A DNA stretch of 64,000 bases from Myxococcota bacterium (GTDB lineage: Bacteria; Myxococcota_A; UBA9160; UBA6930): NCBI GenBank assembly GCA_965223705.1, contig OZ245015.1, positions 1,410,582 through 1,474,581 on the forward strand, given 5' to 3'. Position numbers and translations under genes: made by a program. The notes under the pieces were generated by a model. That model saw only the letters and a program-made list of their open reading frames with translations, did no database searches and was not told the DNA's origin. Below, one piece after another: positions 36,482 to 59,527 of the stretch. Every line of letters begins with the position of its first letter. Position 1 is the first letter of the stretch.

Positions 36482-36519
36482 TCTCCGTTCCCCCTTGGGG
36501 AGTGGCGCTCAGGAGTACG

Positions 36520-36547: not shown

Positions 36548-36658
36548 ACTGAGGTTTTTGGCTCCAGGAAAGCTGCCGCTGCAGACGGATCGGGCCGCGA
36601 TGAGACCCGCCTAGGGAACCGCTGTTCCCCGCCCTCCTCGCGATCGGTCACGGACTGA

Positions 36659-36738: not shown

Positions 36739-36751
36739 ATCGGAGGGAAGA

Positions 36752-37123: not shown

Positions 37124-37139
37124 GCGGACGGGGAGCGCC

Positions 37140-37610
37140 ATGCCCAGACGACGAGAAGTACCGAAGCGCCGGATCGACCCCGATCCGAAGTACGGCGACC
37201 GCATGGTCGCCCGCTTTACGTCGGTCTTGATGCTCGACGGAAAAAAGAGCGTCGCCGAACACATCGTATACGGTGCGTTCCACGAAATCGAAAGCAAGAC
37301 GCGGAACGATCCGTTGGCGATGTTCCGGCGGGCGATGGACAACGTGCGTCCCCGGGTCGAAGTGAAGTCCCGCCGCGTCGGTGGCGCCACGTACCAGGTG
37401 CCGATCGAAGTTCGACCGGAGCGAGCGAACAGCCTGGCCATGCGTTGGCTCGCGCAGTCCGCGAGAAGCCGCTCGGGAAAGAGTATGCGCGAGAAGCTTG
37501 CCAGCGAGTTGATCGACGCGGCGAACGAGCGCGGCGAGGCGGTGAAGAAGCGCGAAGATACCCACCGAATGGCCGAGGCCAACAAGGCCTTCTCGCACTA
37601 CCGCTGGTAG
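37140..37610 (+). CDS. rpsG: 30S ribosomal protein S7
   Basis: The in-frame ATG at 37140 gives [20 protein letters not shown]...[15 protein letters not shown]. The track's 37068 start was rejected. Confidence 0.97.
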
Positions 37611-37625
37611 GCGAAGCGTAACGTC

Positions 37626-39698: not shown

Positions 39699-39716
39699 GT
39701 AGGGGAGCTCGCGGAG

Positions 39717-40907
39717 ATGGCGAAGGAGAAGTTCGAGCGGACGAAGCCTCACGTAAACGTGGGGACGATTGGTCACGTAGACCATGGGAAGACGACGTTG
39801 ACGGCGGCGATCACGTCGCGCCAGGCGCATAAGAGCCTGGCCGAGAAGGTGGACTTCGCGAACATCGACAAGGCACCGGAGGAGCGAGAGCGCGGGATCA
39901 CGATCGCGACGGCCCACGTGGAGTACCAGACGGACAGCCGTCACTACGCGCACGTGGATTGCCCGGGCCACGCGGACTACGTGAAGAACATGATCACGGG
40001 CGCGGCACAGATGGACGGAGCGATTTTGGTGGTGTCGGCTGCGGACGGCCCGATGCCTCAGACGCGCGAGCACGTGTTGCTGGCGCGCCAGGTGAACGTT
40101 CCCCACATCGTGGTGTTCATGAACAAAGTGGACCAGGTGGATGACGAGGAGTTGCTGGAGCTTGTGGAGCTCGAGGTACGTGAGCTGTTGTCGAACTACG
40201 AGTTTCCTGGGGACGACATTCCGATCATCAAGGGTTCGGCGCTGAAGGCTGGCGAGGACCCGAGCAACGATGAGGCGAACCAGTGCATCGACGAGTTGAT
40301 GGATGCGCTGGACGCGACGATCCCGGAGCCTGAGCGGGCGCTCGACAAGGACTTCCTGATGCCGATCGAGGACGTGTTCTCGATTACGGGCCGCGGGACG
40401 GTTGTGACGGGTCGCGTGGAGCAGGGGATCATCCACACGGGCGACGAAGTGGAGATCGTTGGGATCCGAGACACGACGAAGACGGTGTGCACGGGCGTGG
40501 AGATGTTCCGCAAGATTCTGGATGAGGGTCAGGCGGGAGACAACGTGGGTTGTCTGCTGCGCGGGACGGACAAAGAGGACGTGGAGCGTGGTCAGGTCCT
40601 GGCGAAGCCCGGGTCGATCACGCCGCACACGAAGTTCAAGGGTCAGGCGTACGTGCTGACGAAGGAGGAGGGAGGTCGCCATACGCCCTTCTTCACGGGC
40701 TATCGGCCTCAGTTCTACTTCCGAACGACGGACGTGACGGGTGTTGCGAACCTTCCGGAGGGTACGGAGATGGTGATGCCCGGTGACAACATCGAGATGA
40801 CGATCGAGCTGATCACGCCGATCGCGATGGATCCGGAGCTTCGCTTCGCGATCCGCGAGGGCGGTCGCACGGTGGGTGCCGGCGTCGTCTCGGAGATTAT
40901 CGAGTAA
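39717..40907 (+). CDS. tuf: elongation factor Tu (copy 2)
   Basis: Same length as copy 1. The translations differ at two residues (HKSLAEK vs HKNLAEK; NLPEGTE vs NLPDGTE). The flanks are unrelated. Confidence 0.97.
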
Positions 40908-40909
40908 TC

Positions 40910-41227
40910 GTGGCTGACTTAAATTCCCCGAAGATCCGCATTCGTATGAAAGCGTATGACCACAAGCTTCTCGACCAGAGCGTCGGAGAGATCGTGGATA
41001 CGGCGATGCGCACTGGTGCCCGCGTGGTCGGGCCGATCCCGCTGCCGACGGCGATCAACAAGTACACGGTGCTCCGCGGGCCGCACATCGACAAGAAGTC
41101 TCGGGAGCAATTCGAGATGCGAACGCACAAGCGCTTGATCGACATTCTCGATCCGACGCCCCAGACCGTCGACGCTTTGATGAAGCTCGAGCTGGCTGCG
41201 GGCGTCGACGTAGAGATCAAACTCTGA
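40910..41227 (+). CDS. rpsJ: 30S ribosomal protein S10
   Basis: [16 protein letters not shown]...IPLPT...[28 protein letters not shown]. Confidence 0.97.
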
Positions 41228-41868
41228 TGGCGACCATCGATCTACGGAACAGCCAGAACCAGAGCGCAGGGAGCGTGGAGCTCTCCTCCGCTGTGTTCGA
41301 AACCAAGGTCTCGCCCGGCCTGTTGCACGCGGAAGTGCGTCGCCAGTTGGCAGCGCGCCGTTCGGGCAACGCCTCGACGAAGAACCGTCACGCGGTTTCC
41401 GGCGGCGGCGCCAAACCGTACCGCCAGAAAGGGACGGGGCGAGCCCGTCAGGGATCGATACGGTCTCCCCAGTACCAAGGCGGTGGTGTCGTGTTCGGTC
41501 CGGTGCCGCGGAACTACGCCCATAAGCTGCCGAAGAAAATGCGTCGCAAGGCGCTGTGTTCCGCCTTGTCGCTGCGGCGCGAAGAAGGCGATCTCGCGGT
41601 GGTCGACAGCATCGAGCTCAACGCCTGTAAGACAAAGAAGGTCGTTGAGCTCCTCCGCGGGCTCGAGCTCTCGGGCAGTTCCGTCCTCATCGTCATCGAC
41701 GGCGCCGATGAGACGTTGTCGAAGGCGGCGAGGAACCTGCCGGGTGTCGATGTGCTCCAGGCGTCGGGGCTCAACGTATACGACGTGTTGGGGCACCAAA
41801 AGCTCCTGATGACCCGAGCGGGCCTCGATGCAGTCACGGCGAGGCTGTCGGTCGGGGGTGCGTCATGA
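41227..41868 (+). CDS. rplD: 50S ribosomal protein L4
   Basis: [34 protein letters not shown]. The start shares one nucleotide with the rpsJ stop (TGATG), so no rplC lies between them. Confidence 0.95.
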
Positions 41869-42152
41869 ACCTCCACGAGGTGATTCGGCGTCCGCTTGTG
41901 ACGGAGAAGAGCACCATCGCGCGCGAAGAACTCAACATTGTGACCTTTGCGGTGGATCCGCGCGCGAGCAAGTTCGACGTGAAGAGCGCCGTTGAGCGCC
42001 TGTTTGAAGTCAGCGTTCTCGAGGTGAGGACGATGCGCATGCCTCGGAAGTCCCGACGGCTCGGGCGTTTCATCGGCAGGCGACCGGAATGGAAGAAAGC
42101 CATCGTGCGATTGGCAGAAGGCCAATCGATCGAGTTCTTCGAGGGGGTCTAG
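41865..42152 (+). CDS. rplW: 50S ribosomal protein L23
   Basis: [12 protein letters not shown]...[26 protein letters not shown]. Confidence 0.95.
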
Positions 42153-42158
42153 GCGGCC

Positions 42159-42989
42159 GTGGCAGTTCGAGTCTACAAACCGACTTCGGCGGGGCGGCGC
42201 AAGATGAGCGTCTCCGACTTCGGCGAAGTGACGAGCAAGAAGCCCGAGCGATCTCTCCTCGGAGGCCGTGTCAGCAAGAGCGGCGGGCGAAACAACAACG
42301 GTCGGGTCACGTCGTGGCAGCGCGGAGGCGGTCACAAACGCCGCTATCGCAAGATCGACTTTCGGCGCGAGAAGCACGGCGTACCCGCAAAGGTCGCCGC
42401 CGTCGAGTACGATCCGAATCGTTCCGCGAACATCGCGTTGCTCCACTACCGAGACGGTGAAAAGCGCTACATCCTGGCCCCGGTCGGTGTCACCGTCGGA
42501 ACCGTTTTGATGTCGGGGCCCGATGCTGACTTCCGACCGGGAAATGCCATGCCGCTCTCCCAGATCCCGCTCGGGACGGTCGTCCACGCGATCGAAATGA
42601 AGGAAGGAAAAGGCGCGCAAATGGTGCGGGCCGCCGGCGGCGGAGCGCAGCTCATGGCCCGCGAAGGTCAATACGCCACGTTGCGGATGCCGAGCGGCGA
42701 AAACCGCCAGATCCACATCCGCTGTCAGGCGACGATCGGTCAGGTGGGCAACCTCGATCACGAGAACCGGCGGATCGGGAAAGCGGGTCGTTCCCGTTGG
42801 CTCGGCAAGCGTCCGAACGTTCGCGGCGTCGCCATGAATCCGGTGGACCACCCGATGGGTGGCGGCGAGGGCAAGAGTTCGGGCGGTCGTCACCCGTGCA
42901 CGCCGTGGGGAAAGCCGACGAAGGGACACAAGACGCGCAAGAAGGGTCGCTCCGACAAGTACATCGTGAAGCGGCGAGGGAAGAAATAA
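42159..42989 (+). CDS. rplB: 50S ribosomal protein L2
   Basis: [22 protein letters not shown] and [21 protein letters not shown]. Confidence 0.98.
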
Positions 42990-43264
42990 TGGCGCGTTCA
43001 CTGAGGAAAGGGCCGTACGTCGAAACGAGCTTGCAGCGTAAGGTCGCTCAGCAGGTCGAAAGCGGTTCGAAGCAAGTCATCAAGACATGGTCGCGCCGCT
43101 CCATGATCACGCCGGAGATGATCGGCATTACGTTCCACGTCCACAACGGGAAGCTCTTTATGCCCGTCTACGTGACGGAGAACATGGTCGGGCACCGCCT
43201 CGGAGAATTCGCGCCGACGCGCAAGTTCACCGGGCACGCGACGGACAAGAAAGTGAAGCGCTGA
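42989..43264 (+). CDS. rpsS: 30S ribosomal protein S19
   Basis: The in-frame ATG at 42989 gives [11 protein letters not shown]...[31 protein letters not shown]. It overlaps the rplB stop (TAATG). Confidence 0.97.
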
Positions 43265-43611
43265 TGGCGGTTTCGGCATCCCTGCAGAACACGCGGATCA
43301 GCCCGCAGAAGGCGCGACTTCTCGCCGATCAAGTGCGCGGGCTCGGTATCGAAGACGCTTTGACGATCCTCGAGATGTCGCCGAAGCGTTTTGCCGGGCC
43401 GCTCGCGAAACTGTTGCGATCGGCTGTCGCGAACGCGGAAGACAAGAACAACCGCGACAAGGCGGGTATCGACATCGACAACTTGTACGTCCAAACCATC
43501 ACGGTCGACCAAGGGGCCAGCATGTGGCGAATTCGCGCCCGCGCTCAGGGTCGCGCCGCCTGGATCCAAAAGAAGACCAGCCACGTGGCCGTGGTTCTGG
43601 AAGAGCGATAG
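43264..43611 (+). CDS. rplV: 50S ribosomal protein L22
   Basis: The in-frame ATG at 43264 gives [26 protein letters not shown]...RIRARAQGRAAWIQKKTSH. Confidence 0.95.
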   Translation: MAVSASLQNTRISPQKARLLADQVRGLGIEDALTILEMSPKRFAGPLAKLLRSAVANAEDKNNRDKAGIDIDNLYVQTITVDQGASMWRIRARAQGRAAWIQKKTSHVAVVLEER

Positions 43612-43626
43612 GACGTCGGAGAGATC

Positions 43627-44307
43627 ATGGGACAAAAAGTACACCCCTACGGTTTTCGCTTGGGCGTCCTCTACGGATGGAAATCGAACTGGTTCGGCGA
43701 TCGACGCTACGCGGACCAGGTCCAAGAAGACCACGCGATTCGCAAGTTCATCAAGAAGAAGCTCTACCACGCGGGGATTTCGAAGGTCGTTATCGACCGG
43801 ACCGGCGAAAAGGTCGTCGTGAACATCCACACCGCGCGGCCGGGGATCCTCATCGGAAAGCGCGGTGCGGAGGTCGAGGTTCTCCGAGGTGAGCTCGCCT
43901 CGAAAACTTCCGGCGAGGTGTTCATCAACATCAAAGAGATTCGCAAAGCCGAACTCGATGCCCAGCTCGTGGCGGAGAACATCGCGCTCCAGCTCGAACG
44001 CCGCGTCGCGTTCCGGCGGGCGATGAAAAAGGCCCTGACTTCCACGATGAAGTTCGGCGCCGAAGGCATCCGCATCGAGTGTGCGGGTCGGCTCGGCGGT
44101 GCCGAGATGGGCCGACGCGAGCGCTACCTCGAAGGCCGCGTGCCGCTACACACGCTCCGCGCCGACATCGACTTCGGCATGGCCGAAGCGAAGACCACTT
44201 ACGGCGTGATCGGTGTGAAGTGCTGGATCTTCCGCGGTGATGTGCCGGACAAAGAGATCCGCGGCTCCTCATTGGCCGAACGCGGCCAGGAACAGGCGGC
44301 GAGGTAG
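43627..44307 (+). CDS. rpsC: 30S ribosomal protein S3
   Basis: [13 protein letters not shown] is followed by a KH domain and [12 protein letters not shown]. Confidence 0.97.
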
Positions 44308-44309
44308 TC

Positions 44310-44723
44310 ATGCTTCAGCCGAAGAAAGTCAAGCATCGCAAGATCATGAAGGGTCGCATGAAGGGGAAGGCCTATCGCGGAAGCACGGTCTCCTTCGGCG
44401 AGTTCGGATTACAGGCGACGACGCGCGGGCGGATGACCGCGCGCCAGATCGAAGCCGCTCGTATCGCCATGACCCGTCACGTCAAGCGCGGTGGCAAGGT
44501 TTGGATTCGCGTGTTCCCGGACAAGCCGATTACGAAGAAGCCCGCGGAAACCCGGATGGGTAAAGGTAAGGGCAACCCGGAAGAGTGGGTGGCGATCGTT
44601 AAGCCGGGGAAGATCCTCTACGAAATGGAAGGCGTTCAGCCCGAGGTCGCACGCGAAGCGTTCCGCCTGGCGGCCCACAAGCTGCCGTTCCGGACGCGCT
44701 TTGTGCAGCGAGAGGAGCTCTAG
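44310..44723 (+). CDS. rplP: 50S ribosomal protein L16
   Basis: [19 protein letters not shown]...[19 protein letters not shown]. Confidence 0.97.
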
Positions 44724-44920
44724 TGAAGGTCAAGGAACTCCTCGATCTGTCGGCCGAGGAACTACACGCCAAGGGCGAGGAGCTGCGGGGCGAGCTGTTC
44801 AGCGTCAACGTGAAGCACGCAACCGGGCAACTCGAAGACACGGCTCGACTCAAGCGGTTGCGCCGCGATATCGCGCGCGTCGAAACCGCGACGCAGCAAA
44901 AGCGGGAGGCCAATTCGTGA
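44723..44920 (+). CDS. rpmC: 50S ribosomal protein L29
   Basis: A 65-aa ORF ([37 protein letters not shown]) in the canonical position. Confidence 0.93.
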
Positions 44921-45177
44921 AACGCGGTCACCGGAGAACTCTCGTCGGAACCGTTGTCGGCGATCAGATGGACAAGACGGTGGTCGTCCGGGTCGAGCGG
45001 CTCGTGAAAGACACGTCCTACAAGAAATACGTCCGGCGTTACTCGCGGTTTATGGCGCACGACGAAGAGAACGCGTGCTCGGTCGGAGATCGCGTTCAAA
45101 TCATCGAGCATCGACCGCTGTCCAAACGCAAGCGCTGGAAGGTTCGGGCCACCGTTGGAAAGGCCGGGGGGGCCTAG
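44917..45177 (+). CDS. rpsQ: 30S ribosomal protein S17
   Basis: GTG 44917 overlaps the rpmC stop (GTGA). [32 protein letters not shown]...[18 protein letters not shown]. Confidence 0.95.
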
Positions 45178-45186
45178 GGGACCGGC

Positions 45187-45555
45187 ATGATTCAAACCGA
45201 ATCCAAGCTCGAAGTCGCAGACAATTCGGGGGCGCGCAAGGTGGCCTGCATCCGCGTCCTCGGAGGGTCTCGGCGACGCTACGCCTCGGTGGGGGACATC
45301 ATCGTGGTCGCGGTGAAAGACGCGATTCCGAACGCCCGGGTCAAGAAAGGCGAGGTCAGGAAAGCGGTGGTCGTCCGGACCAAGAAAGGGATCGGACGCC
45401 CCGACGGTTCCTATATCAAATTCGACGACAACGCCGCGGTGATCCTCGACAACCAGCGAGAGCCGGTGGGAACCCGGATCTTCGGGCCGGTCGCTCGCGA
45501 GCTCCGGGGAAAGCAATTCATGAAGATCATCTCCCTCGCACCGGAGGTGTTGTGA
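45187..45555 (+). CDS. rplN: 50S ribosomal protein L14
   Basis: [27 protein letters not shown]. Confidence 0.98.
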
Positions 45556-46097
45556 TGCTGCCGCGATTGCAGGTTCGTTATCGGGATACGGTACGCGCGA
45601 AGCTGACCGAAGAATTCTCGTACAAGAACATTCATCAAGTTCCCAGTTTGACCAAGGTCGTCGTCAATATCGGCCTCGGCGAAGCGACGGAGAACGCGAA
45701 GCTGCTCGAGCGTGCCAGCGAAGAGCTCGGCCAGATCGCAGGCCAGCGTCCGGTGATCCGAAAGGCAAAGAAGTCCGTCGCGGCGTTCAAGCTCCGAGAA
45801 GGACAATCGATCGGTTGCATGGTGACGCTCCGCGGCGCCCGTATGTGGGAGTTCTACGACCGCTTGACCAACGTCGCGCTCCCGCGTGTTCGCGACTTCA
45901 AAGGCGTGTCGCCGAAGTCGTTCGACGGGCGGGGGAACTACACGCTCGGAATTCGAGAACAGATTATTTTTCCGGAAGTCGACTACGACAAGGTCGAGAA
46001 GATTACCGGGATGAACGTGACGGTTTGCACGACGGCCGAGACGGACGCCGAAGCGAGGGCGCTTCTCGGGCACCTCGGCATGCCGTTCCGCCAATAG
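45555..46097 (+). CDS. rplE: 50S ribosomal protein L5
   Basis: ATG 45555 shares one nucleotide with the rplN stop. [21 protein letters not shown]...[11 protein letters not shown]...[19 protein letters not shown]. No rplX lies between rplN and rplE. Confidence 0.95.
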
Positions 46098-46107
46098 GTG
46101 ACGCGTT

Positions 46108-46503
46108 ATGATGACTGACCCGCTTGGAGACATGTTGACCCGGATCCGCAACGCGTGTCGCGCCGGACACTCGGGGACGCACTGTCCGCCCTCCCGATTG
46201 AAGATTGCGGTCGCTGAAGCGATGAAAATGGAGGGATTTCTCGAGAGCGTCGAGGTCGACGCGGGCGATGGGAAGCCGGAACTCAAGATCGAGATCCGCT
46301 ACGGCGGCGACGGCGAGGCCATTCTCGACGGGCTTCGCCGTGTCAGTCGGCCGAGCCGACGTGTTTACGTGGGCGTCGCCGAGATTCCGAAGGTCCGCAA
46401 CGGTCTCGGAGTTGCGATCTTGTCGACGCCGAAGGGGATTTTGTCGGACCGGGCCGCCCGCGAAGCGAACGTGGGCGGCGAAGTCCTGTGTGAGGTCTGG
46501 TAG
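46108..46503 (+). CDS. rpsH: 30S ribosomal protein S8
   Basis: MTDPLGDMLTRIRNA...GVAILSTPKGILSDRAAREANVGGEVLCEVW. It starts only 10 nt after rplE, so no rpsN fits between them. Confidence 0.97.
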   Translation: MMTDPLGDMLTRIRNACRAGHSGTHCPPSRLKIAVAEAMKMEGFLESVEVDAGDGKPELKIEIRYGGDGEAILDGLRRVSRPSRRVYVGVAEIPKVRNGLGVAILSTPKGILSDRAAREANVGGEVLCEVW

Positions 46504-46505
46504 GC

Positions 46506-47042
46506 ATGTCGCGAATCGGCCGACAAGTGATCGCGCTACCGAGTGGCGTCGAAGTGACCATCGGCGACGGGGAAGTCCACGTCAAAGGGCCGAAGGGCAG
46601 CCTGTCCGAGCGCTTTCCAAACGTCGTTACGATCGAGCTCGCCGACGGTGAGATCCGTGTGACGCGCGGGGACGACAAGAAGTTCTCGAAGTCCGCCCAC
46701 GGCCTCGTGCGCTCCCTGATTGCGAACATGGTTCAGGGTGTCACCGAGGGTTTTTCGCGAGAGCTCGAGATTCAAGGCGTGGGTTACCGGGCCGAGGCGG
46801 CGGGAAAGACCTTGAAGTTGTCTCTCGGTTTCTCGCACCCAGTCGACGTGCCGGTTCCCGAGGGCTTGAGCGTTTCGGTTCAAGACAACCGCGTGAAGGT
46901 CGAGGGAATCTCGAAACACGCGGTTGGTCAGTTCTCCGCAGAGATTCGCGGGTTGCGCCCGCCCGAACCGTACAAGGGGAAGGGCGTGCGCTACGTCGAC
47001 GAATACGTTCGCCGCAAGGTGGGCAAGGCTGGCGCCGCGTAG
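46506..47042 (+). CDS. rplF: 50S ribosomal protein L6
   Basis: [17 protein letters not shown]...GVGYRA...[11 protein letters not shown]. Confidence 0.97.
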
Positions 47043-47047
47043 AGGTT

Positions 47048-47422
47048 TTGATGCGAAAGAAGGTTCGAAACAACGTTCGAGGCAACTGGCTGGGTCGCAA
47101 GCAGCGCGTCAGTCGCCGCCTGTCCAACACGGATCGGGTTCGCCTGACGGTTTTTCGCAGCGCGAAGCATATCTATGCGCAGCTCGACGACCCGATCTCG
47201 GGCAAGACCCTGGGCTCGGTATCCACGCGCAAGAGCGGCGTGGTCAGCGGCGATGCGTCGACCGGCGGCATCGAGGCGGCGAAGCAGGTCGGTGCGGCAA
47301 TCGCCGGTCTCGCAAAAGAGAAATCCATCGAAGAAGTCGTCTTCAATCGGAATGGCTTCCACTACCACGGGCGCATCAAGGCTTTGGCCGACGCTGCGCG
47401 CGAAGCGGGTCTCAGGTTCTAA
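47048..47422 (+). CDS. rplR: 50S ribosomal protein L18
   Basis: [17 protein letters not shown]...[29 protein letters not shown] 47051 is an alternative start. Confidence 0.95.
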
Positions 47423-47424
47423 GC

Positions 47425-47919
47425 ATGTCGAATCTCGCACGCCTCAACGCGAACGAATACGAATTGGCCGATCGCGTCATCCACATCAACCGGGTGGCCA
47501 AGGTGGTGAAGGGCGGCCGGCGCTTCAGCTTCTCTGCGCTCGTCGTCGTGGGCGACGGAGACGGCGTCGTCGGCGTCGGCATGGGCAAGGCCGGAGAAGT
47601 CCCCGAGGCGATTCGCAAAGGTGTGGAGCGAGCGCGCAAGCAGCTCCTCCGGGTTCCGTTGGTCGAGGGCACCCTGCCCCACGAGATCGTGGGTCGCTTC
47701 GGCGCCGGCCGCGTGTTGCTGCGCCCCGCGTCTTCCGGAACCGGTGTCATCGCAGGCGGGGGCGTTCGCGCCGTCGTCGAAGCGGCGGGGGTCCGCGACG
47801 TTTTGACCAAGACCCTGGGAACGAACAATCCCCACAATGTCGTTCGTGCGACGGTCGCTGCCCTTTTGGAGTTGCGCGATCCCGAAGAGCGACTCGCCGA
47901 GTTGGGACGCACGCAATGA
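47425..47919 (+). CDS. rpsE: 30S ribosomal protein S5
   Basis: In-frame ATG at 47425. [39 protein letters not shown]. Confidence 0.97.
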
Positions 47920-48098
47920 GTGGAAAAGTTCGGATCACACAGGTGCGCAGCGCCATCGGGTACAACCGGAAGCAGCGCCAAACGCTGCGCGGTCTGGGGA
48001 TTCGCCGCATGAACCACACCGTCGAGCTGACGGCGACCCCCCCGGTTCTCGGCATGATTCGAAAGGTGAGCCACCTGGTCAAGGTGGAGGAGATCTAA
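47916..48098 (+). CDS. rpmD: 50S ribosomal protein L30
   Basis: ATG 47916 overlaps the rpsE stop (ATGA). [33 protein letters not shown]. Confidence 0.95.
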
Positions 48099-48100
48099 CG

Positions 48101-48567
48101 ATGCTCGATCGCCTATCTCCCGATCCGGGTTCACGCCGTCCGCCGAAGCGCGTCGGGCGCGGTCCCGGTTCGACGGTTGGGAAGACCGCCGGTCGCGGAA
48201 TCAAAGGACAGGGTCACCGTTCGGCGGGCGAGGAAGTGCCGCTCTACTTCGAGGGCGGTCAGAACTCGCTCGTCCGTCGCATTCCGAAGCGCGGTTTTCA
48301 CAATATCCACGCCGTTCCCGTCGCTGCGGTGAACGTGCGCGATCTAGCTCGGTTGGGTGACGGCGCCAGCGTCGATCTCGAATCCCTGGTCGCCCGCCGC
48401 CTGGTCCGCCGCGGGTCGACGATCGTGAAGATTCTCGGCGAAGGCGAGTCGCCGAAGAATTTGAACGTGAAGGTGCATCGCGTGAGCGCATCCGCTCGAC
48501 AAAAGATCGAGGCAGCCGGCGGAACCGTCGAGCTTGTGCCGGTCCCGAAGAAGAAGGGACGTTCCGC

Positions 48568-48571
<4 letters not shown>
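48101..48571 (+). CDS. rplO: 50S ribosomal protein L15
   Basis: In-frame ATG at 48101. KRVGRGPGSTVGKTAGRGIKGQGHRSAGEEVPLYFEGGQ. Confidence 0.95.
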
Positions 48572-49877
<1,306 letters not shown>

Positions 49878-49881
<4 letters not shown>

Positions 49882-50459
49882 CCGCGAAGCGCCTCCTGCT
49901 TCTCGGCCCGCCGGGGGCCGGCAAGGGAACTCAGGCGCAGCGCCTGATCGACGACCTTGGCGTGCCCCAGGTGTCCACCGGCGACATGCTCCGCGCGGCC
50001 GTCGCCGCCGGCACGCCTGTCGGGAAGCGTGCACAGGCACAGATGGAAGCGGGTGAGCTCGTTTCCGACGAAGTCGTCATCGGTGTTGCGAAGGAACGCC
50101 TGATGCAGCCGGATGCGGCGGAGGGGTTCATTCTCGACGGCTTCCCGCGAACCGTCGCGCAGGCGGAAGCCCTCGATGGCTTGCTCGAGGAACTCGGCGT
50201 GAAGCTCGAGCGCTGCGTTGCGCTCGTCGTCGACGAAGAAGAGCTCGTCAAACGGCTCCTCAAACGCGCAGAAATCGAGGGTCGCGCCGACGACAACGAA
50301 GTATCGATTCGAACCCGAATGCAGGAGTACCGAGAAAAGACGGCGCCCCTGCTCACTTACTACCGCGAGCGCGGCGTGCTCAGCGAAGTCGACGGTCTCG
50401 GAACCGTGGACGAAATCGCCGAACGCATCGGCGCCGCGATCGGAGGCTCTACGGCGTGA
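49878..50459 (+). CDS. adk: adenylate kinase (short-lid form)
   Basis: [17 protein letters not shown] and [15 protein letters not shown] are present. The lid region has no Zn-finger Cys residues. Confidence 0.95.
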
Positions 50460-50569
50460 AAGTCCGCGCATCCGTCAAGAAGCTTTGTGAGAAGTGTCGC
50501 ATCATCCGCCGTCGCGGTGTGTTGCGCGTGATCTGCGAAAACCCCAAGCACAAGCAGAAGCAGGGGTAG
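50456..50569 (+). CDS. rpmJ: 50S ribosomal protein L36
   Basis: Not in the ORF track because it is under 60 aa. GTG 50456 overlaps the adk stop (GTGA). It translates to [37 protein letters not shown], with TAG at 50567. Confidence 0.92.
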
Positions 50570-50579
50570 GAGCTCCCTT

Positions 50580-50963
50580 ATGGCACGAATCGCAGGTATC
50601 GACCTGCCGCGAAACAAACGAATCGATGTGGCTCTGACCTATATCTACGGGATCGGATCGACTCGAGCGCTGGCGATTTGCGAGAAGGCAGCCGTCGATC
50701 GTTCGACCAATACCGATCACCTGGGCGAAGGCGAAGTGATCAAGCTTCGCGAGATCGTCGAGCGGGAATACCAAGTCGAGGGCGATTTGCGACGCGAGAC
50801 GTCGCAGAACATCAAGCTCTTGATGGATATCGGTTGCTACCGAGGGCTGCGCCACCGGCGGGGGCTTCCCGCACGCGGCCAGCGGACACACACGAACGCG
50901 CGTACCCGCAAGGGCAAGCGCAAGACGGTGGCCGGCAAGAAGAAGCCGCCGACGAAGAAGTAG
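50580..50963 (+). CDS. rpsM: 30S ribosomal protein S13
   Basis: [26 protein letters not shown]. Confidence 0.97.
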
Positions 50964-50970
50964 TTAGGTT

Positions 50971-51354
50971 ATGGTCAAAAAAGGCGGCAAGAAAAAGATC
51001 AAGAAGAACGTCCAGACGGGTGTGGCGCACATTCAGTCCACGTTCAACAACACCATCATCACGATTACCGATCCGGCGGGTGGAGCGCTGGCCTGGGCGA
51101 CGGCAGGGCAACAGGGCTTCAAGGGCTCCCGCAAGTCCACTCCCTTCGCCGCTCAGGTCGCAGCGGAAGAGTGCGCAAAGCGCGCGATGGAACACGGCGT
51201 CCGAACGCTCAGCGTGTACGTCAAAGGACCGGGCGCGGGCCGCGAATCGGCGCTCCGTGCACTTCAAAACGCGGGTCTGCGCGTTTCGATGATTCGAGAC
51301 GTCACTCCCGTTCCTCACAACGGTTGCCGCCCTCCGAAGCGGCGTCGCGTTTAG
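50971..51354 (+). CDS. rpsK: 30S ribosomal protein S11
   Basis: [18 protein letters not shown]...[14 protein letters not shown]...[18 protein letters not shown]. Confidence 0.97.
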
Positions 51355-51369
51355 GGCTAGAGGAAGGAA

Positions 51370-52401
51370 TTGATGCAACAAGAACTCGTTGTACGGAATT
51401 GGCGTGAACTCATTCGTCCTCGGCGTCTCGAGGTCGAAGACGAAACGCAGGGATCGACTTATGGCCGCTTCTCTTGCGAGCCGCTCGAGCGAGGTTTCGG
51501 GCAAACCCTGGGCAACGCGCTGCGTCGGGTTTTGCTGTCTTCGCTGCAAGGTGCCGCGATCACATCGGTCAAGATCGAAGGCGTCTTGCACGAGTTTTCC
51601 ACGATGCCGGGTGTGCTCGAGGACGTCAGCGACATCATCCTGAACCTCAAGGACGTTCGCCTGCGCCTACACTCGGAAGGACCGAAAACCCTGCGCGTGC
51701 AGCGGAGCGGAGAAGGCGTGATCACGGCCGGTGATCTCGTGTCGGACGACGGCACCATCGAGGTCATGAACACGGACCTGAAAATCGCGACGCTGTCGGC
51801 CGACGGCGATTTCGATCTGCTCGCCACGGTCAATCTCGGCAAGGGTTACGCTGCCGCGGAGAAAAACAAAACCGAGGAAATGCCGATCGGCACAATCCCG
51901 ATCGATTCCGCGTTTTCTCCCGTCCGGCGTGTCAACTACAGCGTTACGCCGGCGCGCGTCGGCCGAGAGACGGACTTCGACCGACTCAATCTCGAGGTCT
52001 GGACCGATGGGTCGATCGAGCCCGCAGACGCGGTGGCTTTCGCTGCGAAGATTCTGAAGGATCAGCTCGCGATCTTCATCAACTTCGACGAACCCGAGGA
52101 GTCCGCGATCGCGGCGCCGGAAGAGCCGGAATCCCTCAATCCGAATCTCTTCCGCTCCGTGGACGAGCTCGAGCTCTCGGTGCGCTCAGCGAACTGTCTC
52201 CAGAACGCGAACATTCGCTACATCGGTGAGCTGGTGCAGAAGACCGAAGGCGAGATGCTGAAAACGAAGAACTTCGGACGAAAATCGCTCAACGAGATCA
52301 AGGACGTGTTGGCGTCGATGGATCTGCACTTGGGCATGACGCTCGACGCATTCCCGTCGCGAATGGAACTCGAGCAGCGCGCCCGCGAGCGCGAGGGGTA
52401 A
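51370..52401 (+). CDS. rpoA: DNA-directed RNA polymerase subunit alpha
   Basis: [27 protein letters not shown] is present, with a C-terminal domain reading [24 protein letters not shown]. It starts 15 nt after rpsK, so no rpsD fits between them. ATG 51373 is an alternative start. Confidence 0.97.
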
Positions 52402-52405
52402 ACCG

Positions 52406-52789
52406 GTGCGTCACCGCAAGCGCCACGGAAAACTGAACCGCACGAGCGCGCACCGCAAAGCCATGTTGCGCAATATGGTGACGTCGCTTCTCGATCACGA
52501 GAGGATCGAGACGACTGATGCGAAGGCGAAAGAAGTGCGCCGTCTGGCCGAGCGGATGATCACGCTCGGTAAGCGCGGCACGCTACACGCGCGGCGGCAA
52601 GCCCTGTCCGTCATTCGCAGCAAGCCCGTCGCGACGAAGGTGTTCGACGAGCTTGCCGACCGCTATCGCGATCGCGCCGGAGGCTACACCCGCGTGCTCA
52701 AGCTTCGGCAGCGCACCGGGGACGCGGCTCCGCTATCGCTCGTCGAACTCGTCGACGCGCAACTCACGGCCCCCAACACGGACGACTAA
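52406..52789 (+). CDS. rplQ: 50S ribosomal protein L17
   Basis: [37 protein letters not shown]. Confidence 0.97.
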
Positions 52790-53311
52790 GTGCCGTCGCG
52801 ACGAGGGCCGGCGACCCTCTTGGCTTGCGCGGCCGTGGGAATCGCGGCCGTCCTCTACTTCACTGCCGAGCGCGAAGACGAGACCATCGCGACCGGACGT
52901 GCGGCGCCCGACTTCCAGCTCGCGTCGATCGACGGCGGGACCGTCTCGCTCGCCGCACAGCGCGGGCGGCTGGTCTTTCTCAACTTCTGGGCAACGTGGT
53001 GCAAGCCCTGCGAGGAAGAGATGCCCGCAATGGAGCGCCTCTATCGAGACTTGCGAGGCGACCGGTTCGAGATGATCGCCGTGGCCGTCGGCGATCAGGC
53101 CGATGATGTCCGCGCGTTTCGGGATCGGCTCGGCTTGTCGTTCCCGATCGTCCTCGATCCGGATCGCTCCCTAGCGACCGAGTACCAGAGCTTTCGTTTC
53201 CCCGAGACGTATTGGATCGACGAAGACGGAGTGCTCGTCGCCCGCTTTATCGGCCCGCGAGAGTGGGACGGAGAAGACTACGTGAAGCGGCTCCGAGCGG
53301 AACTCCCGTGA
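52790..53311 (+). CDS. TlpA/ResA-like thiol:disulfide oxidoreductase (thioredoxin fold), membrane-anchored
   Basis: An N-terminal anchor is followed by LVFLNFWATWCKPCEEEMP, which contains the CxxC motif. Confidence 0.8.
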   Translation: MPSRRGPATLLACAAVGIAAVLYFTAEREDETIATGRAAPDFQLASIDGGTVSLAAQRGRLVFLNFWATWCKPCEEEMPAMERLYRDLRGDRFEMIAVAVGDQADDVRAFRDRLGLSFPIVLDPDRSLATEYQSFRFPETYWIDEDGVLVARFIGPREWDGEDYVKRLRAELP

Positions 53312-53619
53312 GTGATCGCCTCCGCCAAGCGCTCCGCGTCGCACCGGCTTTTCTACTGGTGGCGATCTGTATTGCCGCTGCCAGTCGCGACTCCGGAATT
53401 CCGGCGTTGCTGCGGCTCGAGGCCGATCGCCGCGAGGCCGAGCACCGAATCGCCTTGGCGAGCCGATCGGTCGCCGATCTCGAAGCGCGCGCGACCGCCC
53501 TTCGAGACAGCGAATTCGAGCTCGAGCGGGCGATCCGCAACGACTTGCGGTTGGCCAAACCCGGCGAGATCGTGGTCATCGTTCCGGGACGAGAACGCGG
53601 CGAGCTGGCTCTCCCTTGA
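53308..53619 (+). CDS. ftsB: septum formation initiator (FtsB/DivIC family)-like
   Basis: GTG 53308 overlaps the upstream stop (GTGA). One TM helix, a coiled coil, and the terminal RNDLRLAKPGEIVV pattern are present. Confidence 0.6.
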   Translation: MSDRLRQALRVAPAFLLVAICIAAASRDSGIPALLRLEADRREAEHRIALASRSVADLEARATALRDSEFELERAIRNDLRLAKPGEIVVIVPGRERGELALP

Positions 53620-53664
53620 TTCTCATTCCTTGACGTTGCGACGGATGCCCGCGAGTCTCGCCTT

Positions 53665-55398
53665 ATGAAAGATCGTCTGGAAGAAGTGCTGCGCGCGGCC
53701 GTGGCCGAGCTCCTGGCCGGCGACCCCGACGGTACAGAAGTCGCCGGACTACAGGTCGAAGTACCGCGCGAAGCGAGCCATGGCGATTTCGCTTGCAATG
53801 CGGCCATGCTCTTGGCGAAGCGGCTCCGGAAACCTCCTCGGGAAATTGCCGGCCAGCTCGTCGACGCGTTGGCCGCGCACGGCGATCTCGTCGAGCGGGC
53901 GGAAATCGCCGGACCGGGTTTCGTCAACATTTGGCTCGCCACGGATCGGTTCCGCGACCAGCTCGTCTCGCTTCTCGCCGCTGGCCCCGACTTCGGCCGG
54001 TCGGCCGACGCCGCGGGGACCAAGGTTCAAGTCGAATTCGTCTCGGCGAACCCGACGGGCCCGCTCAGTCTGGGGCATGGTCGGCAGGCGGTTCTGGGCG
54101 ACTGCATTGCGCGCTTGCTCGACGCCACCGGGCACGACGTCACGCGTGAGTACTACTTCAACAACGGCGGCCGGCAAATGAGGGTTCTCGGCCAGTCGGT
54201 CCGCGCGCGTTACTTGGAAGCCCTGGGGCTCGCTGCGCCCCCGCGCGAGGAAGAGCTCAAGGACAAAGAGCTCCCGTGGCCCGAGACGATCAACGGCTTG
54301 CCCGTCGAGTTCCCGAGAGACGGCTACCAGGGGGACTACATCGCGGACATCGCAGCGGGGCTCCGCGAGAGTCACGGCGATTCACTCGTGGACGAGCCCG
54401 CAGAGGGGTTGTTCCGCGAACGGGCCGAGGAGACGATCTTCGCAGGCATCCGGCGGACCACCGATTCCCTGGGCATCGCCTTCGACGTCTACTTCAACGA
54501 GACGACGCTTTACGAAGAGGGCAGGCTCGACGAAGCGATCCGCGATCTGTCGGCGGACCAGCTCGTCTACGAAAAGGACGGTGCGACTTGGTTGCGAGCC
54601 ACGCAACTCGGGCTGGCACGTGACCGCGTCCTGATCAAAAGTACCGGAGAGCCGACCTATCTGTTGCCCGATATCGCGTACCACCGCGAGAAGTTCCGGC
54701 GCGGCTTCGACACCGTCATCGATCTCCAGGGCGCGGACCATATCGATCAGTTTCCCTACGTCCGAGCGGCGGCCGCGGCACTCGGCTGCGACGGCAACCG
54801 CATCGAGCTCGTGATGAACCAGTTCGTCACGCTGCGCGCCGGCGGTCGCTCAGTGAAACAGTCGACGCGCGCCGCGACCTTCGTCACGGTGGACGAACTC
54901 GTCGAGGACGTGGGCGTCGACGTTTTCCGCTTCTTCATGATCCAGCGAAAACCCGAGGGACACCTCGATTTCGACCTCGATCTCGCGAAGGAGACCGACT
55001 GGACGAAGAATCCGGCGTACTACCTCCAGTACACCCATGCGCGAACTTGCGGAATCGAGCGCGAAGCCGAAGCCCGGGGGCTGCGCTGCCCGGCACCGGA
55101 AGCGCTCGATGTCTCGCCGCTGGTGCTGCCCGAGGAGCTCGCGCTCGTTCGCCAGCTGGCGTCGCTCCCCGAGGTTGTGGCGGAAGCGGCTACGAGTCGC
55201 GAACCGCACCACATCGCGTATTTCCTTCGCGACGTCGCCGGCCTGTGGAATCCCTACCTGCAAGACGGGAAGCGACACCGCATTCTCGGGGACGATGAAG
55301 CGTTGTCGGTGGCTCGCCTCGCGCTGGCCGCGGCCGTTCGCGTGGTGATGGCGAACGGCCTCGCGCTACTCGGAATGAGCGCACCGGAGCGGATGTGA
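53665..55398 (+). CDS. argS: arginine--tRNA ligase
   Basis: EFVSANPTGPLSLGHGR is the class I HIGH region. A 577-aa ORF with a C-terminal anticodon-binding domain. Confidence 0.95.
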   Translation: MKDRLEEVLRAAVAELLAGDPDGTEVAGLQVEVPREASHGDFACNAAMLLAKRLRKPPREIAGQLVDALAAHGDLVERAEIAGPGFVNIWLATDRFRDQLVSLLAAGPDFGRSADAAGTKVQVEFVSANPTGPLSLGHGRQAVLGDCIARLLDATGHDVTREYYFNNGGRQMRVLGQSVRARYLEALGLAAPPREEELKDKELPWPETINGLPVEFPRDGYQGDYIADIAAGLRESHGDSLVDEPAEGLFRERAEETIFAGIRRTTDSLGIAFDVYFNETTLYEEGRLDEAIRDLSADQLVYEKDGATWLRATQLGLARDRVLIKSTGEPTYLLPDIAYHREKFRRGFDTVIDLQGADHIDQFPYVRAAAAALGCDGNRIELVMNQFVTLRAGGRSVKQSTRAATFVTVDELVEDVGVDVFRFFMIQRKPEGHLDFDLDLAKETDWTKNPAYYLQYTHARTCGIEREAEARGLRCPAPEALDVSPLVLPEELALVRQLASLPEVVAEAATSREPHHIAYFLRDVAGLWNPYLQDGKRHRILGDDEALSVARLALAAAVRVVMANGLALLGMSAPERM

Positions 55399-55862
55399 CG
55401 AGTCGGAGTCAGGTCTCTGTGAGTTCGTGGTTCACCACGCTCGTGGGCGCGGCCTTGCTGCTCGGCTTGGGGTTTGGGGCCGGGCTCGTTGCGGGCGTGG
55501 TGACCGAAGATCCCGGTTTGGTGTGGGCGCATATGTCGGGAGATTCCGTCGAGGCGCCGCTCCCGGCCGTCGCCGCCCAGGGCGGGCATCCGAAAGAGCC
55601 CGACCGACGCGAAACCGCGGTGCCGTCGAACGTTTTGCTTTCCGGGTTTTCCGTGCAGGTCGGCGCGTTCAACGAGGCGGGCCAGGCGGAAGCGCTGCGC
55701 GCGGAGCTCGTCTCCCAGGGCTTCGCCGCCTACGTCCACGAGTCGGGCGGCACACACCGCGTCCGCGTGGGCCCCGTCGAAGAGCGACCCGAGGCGGATG
55801 CGCTCGCCCGCGCTCTGGCGGATCAGCAGCTACCGACCTGGGTCCTCCGCGAAGGCGAGTAG
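55395..55862 (+). CDS. SPOR domain protein
   Basis: One TM helix, then a C-terminal FSVQVGAFNEAGQAEALRAEL...RVRVGPVEERPEADAL. GTG 55395 overlaps the argS stop (GTGA). Confidence 0.8.
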   Translation: MTSRSQVSVSSWFTTLVGAALLLGLGFGAGLVAGVVTEDPGLVWAHMSGDSVEAPLPAVAAQGGHPKEPDRRETAVPSNVLLSGFSVQVGAFNEAGQAEALRAELVSQGFAAYVHESGGTHRVRVGPVEERPEADALARALADQQLPTWVLREGE

Positions 55863-55869
55863 GAACGCC

Positions 55870-56775
55870 GTGCGGGTCATCATCACCGGCGCCGACGGCC
55901 AACTCGGCCGGGCTCTGATGGAAGGGCTTTCGGCGCGTCGCGCTTCCGTGACCGCTCTGGGTCGCACGTGCGACATTACCGATCCCACGAGCGTCGCTCG
56001 GGCGATCCCGGCTTCGTTCGATGTCTGGTTCAACGCCGCAGCCGCCACGGACGTCGATCGCTGCGAGCGCGAGCCCGACTGGGCTTTTGCGGTGAACGCC
56101 GCGGCTCCCGAAGCCCTCGCCCGGCGTTGCCGGGAGGCCGGGGGCCGATTTGTCCACGTTTCTACGGATTTCGTGTTCTCGGGAGCGGCGTCGAGGCCCT
56201 ATCGGGAATCGGACCCCACTAGCCCCCTGAACGTCTACGGGGCTTCGAAGCTCGAGGGGGAGGAGAGGGTGCTCTCGGCCGACCGGTCCGCTCTGGTGGT
56301 TCGGACGAGCTGGGTTTTCGGGGTCACGGGCCGCAATTTTCTCCATACCGTCCTCGTGCGAGCCCGTCGCGGCGAGGCTGTCCGGGCCGCAACCGACCAA
56401 GTCGGCTCGCCGACCTTCGCCCCGGACTTGGCTGCGGGCTTGATCGCCTCGGTGGAGGGTGAGCTGTCCGGTCTCTATCATCTCGCGAACGAGGGAGCGG
56501 CCTCGCGATGGGCCCTGGCGCGAGCGGCGCTCGAGGCAGCTAGTCTCCGGGCAGACGTTGTGGCGGAAGCCCGATTGGCCGACTTCCCGGCGGAGGCGGC
56601 GCGGCCAATGTGCACTGCTCTCGACTGCGGGCTGGCGGCCTCGAAGAACATCCGCCTTCGCCCATGGGAGCCGGCTGTACATGAGTTCGTCGCCCGGTTG
56701 CCCGCTGCCTCGGATCCCCTGGCCGCTGGTCTACCCGCGCCCCAGTCGTCGGATGGAGTGAGATGCGAAGACTGA
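55870..56775 (+). CDS. rfbD: dTDP-4-dehydrorhamnose reductase
   Basis: In-frame GTG at 55870. [34 protein letters not shown] and YGASKLEGE are present. Confidence 0.8.
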
Positions 56776-57728
56776 ACCGAGTACTGGTGACCGGCGGTGC
56801 CGGCTTTCTGGGGTCCCATTTGTGTCGGGAACTCCTCGACGCGGGCAGCGAGGTCATCGCTTTCGACAACCTCCTGACCGGGCGCATGGAGAACATCGAA
56901 GACCTCCTCGGTCATCCGCGTTTTTCCTTCGAGCACTACGACGTCACGAACTATCTGTTCGTGACGGGTGAGCTCGACGCGATCCTGCACTTCGCTTCCC
57001 CGGCGAGCCCCGCGGATTTCGAGCGACTGCCGATCGAGATTCTCAAGGTCGGTTCGCTCGGTACGCACAAGGCGCTCGGCCTCGCGAAGGAGAAGGGCGC
57101 CAGGTTCTTGCTCGCGAGCACGTCGGAATGCTACGGCGATCCGAACGTTGTCCCGCAACCCGAGTCGTATTGGGGCAACGTCAACCCGGTCGGTATTCGC
57201 GGTGTCTACGACGAAGCGAAACGCTTCGCCGAGGCCATGACGATGGCCTACCACCGCCACCACGGTGTCGAAGTTCGCATCGTTCGAATCTTCAACACGT
57301 TCGGTCCGCGGATGCAGATCAACGACGGGCGTGCGATCCCGAATTTCTTTTCCCAAGCGATCCGAGGCGAAGACGTCACCGTGTTTGGCGACGGTTCGCA
57401 AACCCGCTCGATCTGCTACGTCGACGACCTGATCGCCGGCATCCTTGCGCTTCTCCGTTCCGACTACGTCGGTCCGATGAATATCGGTAGCCAGGCGGAG
57501 ATCTCGATGCGTGAGCTCGCGGAGAAGATCATCGATATCGCGAAATCATCGAGCAAAATCGTCAGTCGCCCGCTGCCGCCCGACGACCCGAAAGTTCGTC
57601 GGCCCGATACCACCCTGGCCGAACGCGAGTTGGGCTGGTCGACGAAGGTCTCGGTCGAGGAAGGACTCCGCCGCACCTACGACTACTTCGTCGCTGAGCT
57701 CAAACGGCAGGGTTCTGTTCAGTCCTAA
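56763..57728 (+). CDS. UDP-glucuronate decarboxylase (UDP-xylose synthase)-like SDR
   Basis: [48 protein letters not shown] and [12 protein letters not shown] are present. Confidence 0.8.
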
Positions 57729-59527
57729 TGGACATCCAGCGGATCCGGAATTTCTGCATCATTGCGCACATCGACCACGGGAAGAGTACGCTCGCGGATC
57801 GATTGCTCGAAGTGACCGGCGCCTTGGGAGAGCGCGAGAAACGCAACCAGTTTCTCGACAAGATGGATCTCGAGCGCGAACGCGGCATCACCATCAAAGC
57901 CCAGACCGCACGGATGCGGTACACAGCGTCCGACGGCAACGAGTATCTGCTGAACCTGATCGACACGCCGGGTCATGTGGATTTCTCGTACGAAGTCTCC
58001 CGCGCGCTGCAAGCGTGCGAGGGCGCGGTCTTGGTCGTCGACGCGGCGCAGGGCATCGAAGCACAGACCTTGGCGAACGCGTACCTCGCCGTCGACGCGG
58101 ATCTCGAACTCATCCCCATTGCGAACAAGATCGATCTTCCGTCGGCCGATCCGCTCGCGGTCGCCCAGGAAGTCGAGGATGTCATCGGTCTCGACGCGGC
58201 CGATGTGTTGCCCGTCTCGGCGAAAGAGGGGAAGGGGATCGAGGATCTTCTCGAGCGAATCGTCGAACGCGTACCGCCGCCGAAAGGGGATCCCGAAGCT
58301 CCGGCGCGCGCGTTGATCTTCGACGCTTGGTTTGATTCCTACGTGGGCGTCGCGGCGTTGGTACGGGTCGTCGACGGTCGCCTCGAACGGCGCCAACGCG
58401 TCAAGTTCATGGCGAAGGGTCAGGAACACGAAATTCAGGAGCTCCACGTCGTCGATCCGCACCCGCGCCGCGTCGAAAGCCTCGGCCCGGGAGAGGTGGG
58501 TGTGGCGATCACCGGCGTGAAATCTCTCGATCAGGTCCAGATCGGCGACACGCTCACGACCGTGAGTCGGCCCGCTCCCGAACCTCTGCCCGGTTTTCGC
58601 GAAGTCAAACCGATGGTCTTCAGCGGGCTCTATCCGGTCGACGCCGAAGACTACGAGGCGCTCAAGACCGCGCTCGAGAAGTTGCGCCTGAATGACGCGT
58701 CGTTCCGCTACGAACCGGAGACCAGCGCCGCGCTGGGTTTCGGTTTTCGTTGCGGTTTTCTCGGGTTCCTCCACTGCGAGATCATTCAGGAGCGACTCGA
58801 GCGCGAATACGATCTACAGCTCGTGACCACGGCCCCCACCGTGCGCTATCGGGTCGTGCGGACGGATGGCGAGACGATCGAGATCGAGACGCCCGCCGCG
58901 CTTCCTCCGACGACCGAAGTGAACCGGATCGAGGAGCCCCTCATTCTCGCGACCATTCATGTGCCGCAGGAATTCGTCGGCAACGTCTTGTCCCTTTGCC
59001 AGGACCGACGCGGGGTCCAGCGGGACATGTCGATGCATGGAAGTCGCGCGCAGGTCCGCTATGAAATCCCCTTGGCCGAGGTCGTCGCCGACTTTCACGA
59101 TCGAGTGAAGAGCGCGACGCGGGGCTACGGTTCCTACGATTATGATTTCACCGGTTACGCCGCCGCCGATCTCGTGAAACTCGACGTCCTGGTCAACGGC
59201 GATCCGGTCGACGCCCTTTCGTTGATCGTCCATCGCGACATGGCTCAGCGTCGCGGCTCCGAGCTCACGAGAAAACTGAAGGAGTTCATTCCCCGTCAGA
59301 TGTACGAGGTCGCGATTCAGGCCGCCATCGGTTCCAAGGTCATCGCCCGGACGACGGTCAAGGCCCTTCGCAAGAACGTGACGGCCAAGTGCTACGGCGG
59401 TGATATCACCCGCAAGCGCAAGCTTCTCGAGCGCCAGAAAGAAGGCAAGAAGCGGATGAAGCGGGTCGGCTCGGTAGAGATCCCCCAAGAGGCGTTCCTC
59501 GCAGCGTTGAAACTCGACGACGGCTAG
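57728..59527 (+). CDS. lepA: elongation factor 4 (LepA)
   Basis: [23 protein letters not shown] and [14 protein letters not shown] are present, with the LepA-specific C-terminal domain. Confidence 0.97.

Follow-up and report, generated by a model that had tools for sequence, protein, structure and literature searches.

Known departures from the conserved gene order

Few gene orders in bacteria are as stable as that of the block of translation genes to which the S10, spc and alpha clusters belong, and the genes for ribosomal proteins L3 (rplC) and L24 (rplX) have rarely, if ever, been reported to leave it. A reconstruction of the cluster in 204 genomes recorded 48 single-gene deletions, a deletion being the removal of a single gene that leaves the concatenation intact (Brandis 2021, PMC8046335). 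The cases treated there in depth concerned rpmJ (three events in Gammaproteobacteria), rpsN (Leuconostocaceae), rplJL and secY, and a deletion of rpsD in Bacilli was also recorded; the essential genes turned up at other places in the chromosome, and the deletion had been preceded by a homologue already present or by a new duplication. The main text of that study does not mention rplC or rplX as deleted genes. Here we describe a stretch of 64,000 nucleotides (nt) from a Myxococcota bacterium (assembly GCA_965223705.1, contig OZ245015.1, positions 1,410,582 to 1,474,581 of the forward strand), hereafter the window, whose S10-spc-alpha cluster lacks rplC, rplX, rpsN (S14) and rpsD (S4). Nothing usable was found in the literature on the relocation of rplC or rplX in Myxococcota, the locus tags of Myxococcus xanthus included, and no publication describing this layout was found.

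As in the deletions of PMC8046335, one gene was gone at each site, its neighbours were full-length and the operon-to-operon concatenation was intact, in accordance with the definition used in that study. The window also kept tRNA-Thr/Tyr/Gly/Thr, tufB, tRNA-Trp and secE of the ancestral layout reconstructed there. The layout thus fits events of a known kind; its targets (rplC and rplX) are unusual, and so is the accumulation of up to five nested removals in one lineage. Unlike the cases of PMC8046335, it is known here from the cluster side only.

Three further systems offered partial likenesses. The rpsD gene lies outside the alpha operon in Bacilli (PMC8046335) and is dispersed in Borrelia and Treponema (PMC2481283); as in these bacteria, rpsK was followed directly by rpoA in the window, and the same was seen in two unrelated loci of our survey (L055 and L156). 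In those groups, however, the trait is old and clade-wide, whereas the rpsD gap described here was confined to one lineage. Where two forms of S14 exist, the short, zinc-binding type Z is encoded in the spc operon and the long form outside it. The in-cluster S14 of the window's relatives was a type Z of 61 amino acids (aa) with a CxxC...CxxC pattern, and its repeated loss within the clade that includes the window is the pattern expected with a second S14 gene elsewhere (PMC8046335). Unlike in the two-S14 systems, a long form was found neither in the window nor in the relatives' loci, and its presence in the clade is presumed. In cyanobacteria and plastids, rpsJ is grouped with the str genes and rplC opens a cluster of its own. 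The link between rpsJ and rplC was likewise broken in the window, but here rplC alone was missing and rpsJ adjoined rplD, whereas there the whole rplC-led cluster is split from rpsJ.

Four gene-less junctions in the window

[quoted passage not shown] This order had been proposed in an earlier reading of the letters by themselves (the sequence-only reading), and it was borne out by the coordinates, by tblastn and by a map of the gaps. The four junctions at which a gene is expected, with their flanking genes, were as follows.

40910..41227, + strand: rpsJ (S10), 105 aa; Pfam PF00338, 4.7e-38; tblastn, 1.4e-41
41225..41229, + strand: junction 1, the empty rplC (L3) slot; overlap of the rpsJ stop and the rplD start, cTGATGg
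41227..41868, + strand: rplD (L4), 213 aa; Pfam PF00573, 8.3e-69, profile positions 1-189 of 190
45187..45555, + strand: rplN (L14), 122 aa; Pfam PF00238, 1.8e-56
45553..45557, + strand: junction 2, the empty rplX (L24) slot; overlap of the rplN stop and the rplE start, gTGATGc
45555..46097, + strand: rplE (L5), 180 aa; Pfam PF00281 and PF00673
46098..46107, + strand: junction 3, the empty rpsN (S14) slot; 10-nt spacer between the rplE TAG, ending at 46097, and the rpsH ATG at 46108
46108..46503, + strand: rpsH (S8), 131 aa; Pfam PF00410, 2.5e-42
50580..51354, + strand: rpsM (S13) and rpsK (S11, 50971-51354); tblastn; Pfam PF00411, 3.1e-50, for S11
51355..51372, + strand: junction 4, the empty rpsD (S4) slot; 18-nt spacer with the ribosome-binding site GAGGAAGGA, between rpsK and rpoA
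51373..52789, + strand: rpoA (51373-52401) and rplQ (52406-52789); Pfam; tblastn

The TGATG shared by rpsJ and rplD, the 1-nt overlap of rplN and rplE and the 10 nt between rplE and rpsH were read directly from the sequence and agreed with the earlier description. The close spacing of rpsK and rpoA also held, whereas the 15 nt previously given for it had to be corrected. The TAG of rpsK ends at 51354 and is followed by GGCTAGAGGAAGGAATTG and ATG, with a TTG at 51370 and the ATG at 51373; the latter was taken as the rpoA start because RpoA of the relatives begins MQQE..., which makes the spacer 18 nt long.

In the relatives, the spacer between rpsK and rpsD measured 10-20 nt, with a ribosome-binding site of the GAGGA type, and that between rpsD and rpoA 13-91 nt. 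The rpsK/rpoA spacer of the window resembled the relatives' rpsK/rpsD spacer joined straight to the rpoA ATG, with both flanking open reading frames (ORFs) intact, and the gap looks as if an excision had run from the start codon of rpsD to that of rpoA. In the sister lineages, L14 and L24 overlapped by 1 nt and L24 and L5 by 8 nt, and in the window's clade L14 and L5 overlapped by 1 nt; the rplX gap likewise has the appearance of a start-to-start removal.

The tightness of the junctions had been taken as evidence against an assembly gap, an emphasis that has to be qualified in view of the whole cluster. Every intergenic gap from tuf to rplQ was at most 18 nt, and one-base stop/start overlaps also occurred at rplB/rpsS (TAATG) and rpsS/rplV (TGATG). 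Such gaps and overlaps being the rule throughout the cluster, the tightness at the four sites reflects general compaction and is not special to them.

Search for the missing proteins within the window

When L3, L24, S14 and S4 of Escherichia coli (NC_000913.3) were compared with the 64 kb by tblastn, the best match had an E value of 0.16, and ten proteins of the same E. coli cluster, serving as positive controls, matched at 3e-13 to 2e-84. The match at 0.16 was S4-like, lay at 23217-23375 and was rejected as a chance similarity, since it falls on the tRNA-Tyr/tRNA-Gly genes. Profiles built from related loci (36 L3, 56 L24, 56 S14 and 58 S4 sequences) matched nothing at an E value of 1 or less among the six-frame ORFs of at least 25 aa over the whole window. 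In the Pfam analysis, S10, L4, L14, L5, S8, S11 and RpoA were full-length and of normal size and carried no additional domain; the protein lengths and the full Pfam coverage of the flanking proteins ruled out that any missing protein is fused to a neighbour. The claim that the window holds none of the four proteins was thus upheld.

Distribution of the empty slots among relatives

The survey of relatives comprised 80 loci from a genome scan (one genome per species) with L5 of the window, to which 80 metagenome loci found with its RpoA and 13 loci from context look-ups were added, and each slot was scored. The closest relatives were uncultured Myxococcota/"Deltaproteobacteria" metagenome assemblies (UBA6930, UBA9160 and those of the OFTM, Meg19 and MFD series), whose identity to the window was 71-82% in a concatenation of eight ribosomal proteins; Acidobacteriota and Actinomycetota came next, at about 58-62%. 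The slots were distributed as follows.

rplC slot: 65 sites covered, 34 present, 31 absent (the window and 30 loci); 29 of these in one Myxococcota group, the other two (L064 and L073) elsewhere in the tree
rplX slot: 109 sites covered, 81 present, 28 absent; exactly the window's clade (the window and 27 loci)
rpsN slot: 108 sites covered, 82 present, 26 absent; 24 in the window's clade (patchy; 23 and the window), plus L097 and L113
rpsD slot: 123 sites covered, 120 present, 3 absent; the window and two loci of unrelated lineages (L055 and L156)

The profile search was concordant with this scoring, locus by locus. Measured between alignment ends, the gaps at empty slots were 5-47 nt in the case of rplX, 15-37 nt in that of rpsN and 10-262 nt in that of rplC. 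Gene calls made independently and labelled beforehand with Pfam families gave the same adjacencies in L162, L163, L164, L167 and L172/L173. L162, a long-read contig of 1.03 Mb, had the same gene-less adjacencies; in L163, S10 and L4 as well as L14 and L5 were adjacent, with S14 retained; and in L164, L167 and L172/L173, S10 and L4 were adjacent, with L24, S14, S4 and the methionine aminopeptidase gene, map, all retained.

An empty slot is a lineage trait for rplC, rplX and rpsN, and it is not one for rpsD. The sequence-only reading had treated the four absences as a single feature of this genome, to be abandoned if the layout proved to be a common lineage trait. Comparison with the relatives revealed such a trait for three of the genes and left the rpsD gap private to the window, so that the single feature breaks up into events of different ages. 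That reading had also held that the layout was not an assembly gap. For rplC, rplX and rpsN this is supported by the recurrence of the gene-less junctions in 25-30 independently assembled relatives, whereas the rpsD junction stands without independent confirmation.

At the latter site, rpsK-rpsD-rpoA was retained in 38 of the 38 clade relatives that reach it, and the window was the sole member of its clade without rpsD. The nearest relatives with rpsD at this site were L170/L171 (RpoA 80% identical), L084 (77%, with the S4 C-terminus alone visible), L011, L012, L007 and L169. Among the 80 loci of the RpoA metagenome scan, no second S4-less junction was present in the close ones, all of which carried rpsD. 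The very closest contigs (L002, L009 and L168) stop short of the rpsK/rpoA site; L168, a 1.8-kb contig with an exact match to L36 of the window and 81% DNA identity, ends inside rpsK.

Both rpsD and rpsN leave the cluster repeatedly across bacteria. The gaps at the empty rpsD slots of L055 and L156 measured 179 and 133 nt, and those at the empty rpsN slots of L097 and L113 measured 21 nt. The two loci without rplC outside the Myxococcota group had an L24 (L064:4830-5195 and L073:9627-9959) that ends in a CxxC...CxxC zinc-ribbon-like tail; L24 of the Myxococcota sister lineages carries a ...RWSKKHDEAIDG tail instead.

Order of the removals

To place the absences in order, a neighbour-joining tree of the eight concatenated ribosomal proteins was used. 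The neighbours of the window in this tree were L002/UBA6930 (82.5%), then L009 (81%) and L011 (78%). All loci without rplX formed a single clade that includes the window, and in its sister group (L026, L072, L074, L077 and L164) rplC alone was missing. Within the window's clade, an in-cluster rpsN was kept by L003, L005, L016 and L163; as these do not group together, rpsN was lost repeatedly. Since L064 and L073 lie outside the main group, rplC may also have left more than once.

A fifth gene removed from the cluster was map, which stands between adk and rpmJ. It was kept in most clade members and missing in the subclade formed by L004, L007, L008, L012, L014, L022, L170 and the window, where secY and rpmJ lay about 600-720 nt apart; elsewhere the distance was about 1400 nt. 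In the window, adk and rpmJ (49878-50569) overlapped by 4 nt, with neither map nor infA between them.

The removals were nested: rplC went first, then rplX, then rpsN several times and, in the subclade, map, and then rpsD. Being of different ages, they exclude a single joint move.

Origin of the layout

We read the absences, the structure of the junctions, their distribution among relatives and their nested order as, very probably, a genuine and natural lineage-specific variant of the conserved block, from which genes were removed stepwise and of which copies most likely lie elsewhere. The genes would have been cut out singly, at different times during the evolution of an uncultured Myxococcota group. 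The broad group would have lost rplC at its base and the window's clade rplX at its own; rpsN would have gone repeatedly inside this clade, map in the subclade of the window and, most recently, rpsD, as yet seen to be gone in the lineage of the window alone. Every removal would span roughly from a start codon to the next start codon; the genes on either side would then overlap or lie 10-18 nt from each other, with a ribosome-binding site, and translational coupling would be kept along what appears to be a single long transcription unit. A second copy elsewhere (through duplication, an older paralogue or acquisition), followed by deletion of the in-cluster copy, is the probable route, as described for other single-gene deletions from the cluster. 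The genes for L3, S4 and S14 most likely persist at other loci of the genome, given this precedent and given that, to our knowledge, no bacterium studied so far lacks these three proteins or can do without them. The sequence-only reading had likewise proposed a move of the early-assembly proteins to another locus, perhaps under separate regulation.

Several results weigh against this interpretation. No out-of-cluster copy of an L3, L24, S14 or S4 gene was found in the window or in any relative's locus examined (up to about 20 kb each). The S4 profile matched more than 120 clade members in the protein database at 75% identity or more, and the contexts of the three that were checked (P0094, P0078 and P0073) were all rpsK-rpsD-rpoA. 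The sister-lineage L24 profile gave, among the matches listed, only proteins of 103 aa, and all three of those checked (P0266, P0358 and P0348) lay in the cluster, in lineages that had lost rplC alone. The rpsK/rpoA junction is without a second independent assembly, the closest relatives keeping rpsD and the closest contigs ending before it. Finally, the neighbour-joining tree carries no support values, and the scattered retention of rpsN could partly be tree error.

Other searches concerned S14 and L3. The clade's type-Z S14, used as a query, gave about 8 matches in the protein database at 75% identity or more, of which P0125 was in-cluster; its rarity compared with S4 suggests that most clade members rely on a different S14 gene elsewhere. 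L3 was absent from every Myxococcota locus examined, and an L3 profile had no match in viral contigs. Among the database L24 proteins, P0328 (177 aa) and P0343 (151 aa) showed apparent internal tandem duplications of the KOW/L24 unit.

It is very improbable that an artefact of assembly or binning, through chimeric joins or collapsed sequence, skipped four genes. There was no second assembly of this genome, its exact L4 and L14 proteins had no database record and its exact L36 occurred only on L168, a short contig from a different relative; the rpsD gap was seen within the clade in the window alone, and the duplicated tuf does break or collapse assemblies in this group, as in the contigs starting at rpsJ and in the SpoU-tuf-rpsJ order of L167. 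However, the rplC, rplX and rpsN gaps recurred with the same adjacency in assemblies from short and long reads and from many studies, and all four junctions keep stop and start codons, a ribosome-binding site and full-length flanking ORFs, an outcome that an assembler has no reason to yield. Inspection of the relatives' spacers, made without a dedicated repeat search, revealed no evident repeat flanking rpsD. A true loss of at least one protein from the ribosome, most plausibly L24, or its replacement by a non-homologous or unrecognisably divergent protein, was judged highly unlikely as well. L24 is dispensable in E. coli mutants. The lack of any out-of-cluster copy in the loci examined, the restriction of the listed L24 matches to 103-aa proteins that were in-cluster and from sister lineages wherever checked, and the rarity of type-Z S14 in the clade would all fit such a loss. 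Against it stands the universal need for L3, S4 and S14 mentioned above, and the failure to find copies weighs little, as it comes from the best 120 matches per search, from searches not directed at the clade and from no more than about 20 kb per relative.

An adaptive and linked removal was also considered. In reconstitution of the E. coli ribosome, L3 and L24 initiate assembly of the 50S subunit and S4 that of the 30S subunit; the identification of the assembly initiators is said to go back to Nowotny and Nierhaus. The genes for L3, L24 and S4 might accordingly have been moved for earlier synthesis or for control of their own, perhaps to a shared operon or near the rRNA genes, which we regard as unlikely. 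Three of the five genes removed from the stretch between rpsJ and rplQ encode these initiators, the probability of finding all three among a random 5 of about 32 genes being about 0.002, and the cluster has no room for regulatory leaders of the E. coli type. That probability, however, was calculated post hoc, the removals took place at different times with no joint move, map and the gene for S14, a protein that binds late, were removed as well, and S7, the other initiator of the 30S subunit, stays in place (rpsG, 37140-37610). Moreover, relocations of rpsD and rpsN are common in other bacteria without such a rationale (PMC8046335). It is likewise quite improbable that L3, L24 and then S4 were removed stepwise under selection for uncoupling the assembly initiators from the bulk ribosomal operon; if they were, the relocated genes would be expected under new shared control, perhaps beside rRNA operons or in a common regulon, as part of a differently ordered programme of ribosome assembly.

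Under the stepwise removal that we favour, even the core of this cluster can erode gene by gene with its tight translational coupling kept. L3, L24, S14 and S4 are common markers in phylogenomics and completeness estimates, and in these genomes they would not share a contig with the rest of the cluster; annotation or quality checks based on synteny will wrongly call a gap there. Should the removed genes share a new location or control, they would bear on the link between the order of ribosome assembly and the organisation of its genes.

Other features of the locus

The remaining features of the block and its surroundings were as follows.

23606-24796, + strand: tuf, copy 1
37140-37610, + strand: rpsG (S7)
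39717..40907, + strand: tuf, copy 2; shares 1152 of 1191 nt with copy 1 and ends 2 nt before rpsJ
41865..45177, + strand: rplW, rplB, rpsS (42989-43264), rplV (43264-43611), rpsC, rplP, rpmC and rpsQ (44917-45177)
46506..50569, + strand: rplF, rplR, rpsE (47425-47919), rpmD (47916-48098), rplO (48101-48571), secY, adk and rpmJ (50456-50569)
52790..59527, + strand: AhpC/TSA redoxin, DivIC-like protein, argS, SPOR protein, epimerase and lepA; same order in relatives L162 and L170

The order of the whole block was fully ancestral, with four tRNAs, tuf, tRNA-Trp, secE, nusG, rplKAJL, rpoBC and rpsL-rpsG-fusA-tuf followed by the S10, spc and alpha clusters, and the + strand block of translation genes was unbroken from the tRNAs through rplQ. 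The G+C content was 60-68% over the window and 61-64% over the cluster.

Many of the relatives' contigs began exactly at rpsJ, probably because the tuf repeat breaks assemblies. L167:2772-5757 runs from a SpoU methylase through tuf to rpsJ and skips the nusG-rplKAJL-rpoBC-rpsLG-fusA block between the tuf genes, either as a collapsed assembly across the tuf repeat or as a real rearrangement. Many bacteria carry rpmG (L33) between tuf and tRNA-Trp; a check by eye of the three-frame translations between tuf copy 1 and tRNA-Trp in the window (24797-24956) showed no evident rpmG frame.

The structured leaders of the E. coli type (S10 leader/L4, spc/S8 and alpha/S4) would find no room in the window, the corresponding gaps being 2 nt (tuf-rpsJ), 9 nt (rpsQ-rplN) and 10 nt (rpmJ-rpsM). 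No ribosomal protein leader of Rfam reached its gathering score in the window, the region upstream of rplJ included, and only tRNAs were matched; nor was there any excess of promoter-like or terminator-like sequences on the + strand from 36400 to 54000. The block from tuf to rplQ is most likely a single long translationally coupled unit without leaders of that type.

The genes downstream of rplQ were conserved throughout the Myxococcota group (L162, L164, L167 and L170), in which redoxin, DivIC-like protein, ArgRS, SPOR protein, one or more epimerases, LepA and signal peptidase were encoded. The redoxin start codon sits immediately after the rplQ stop.

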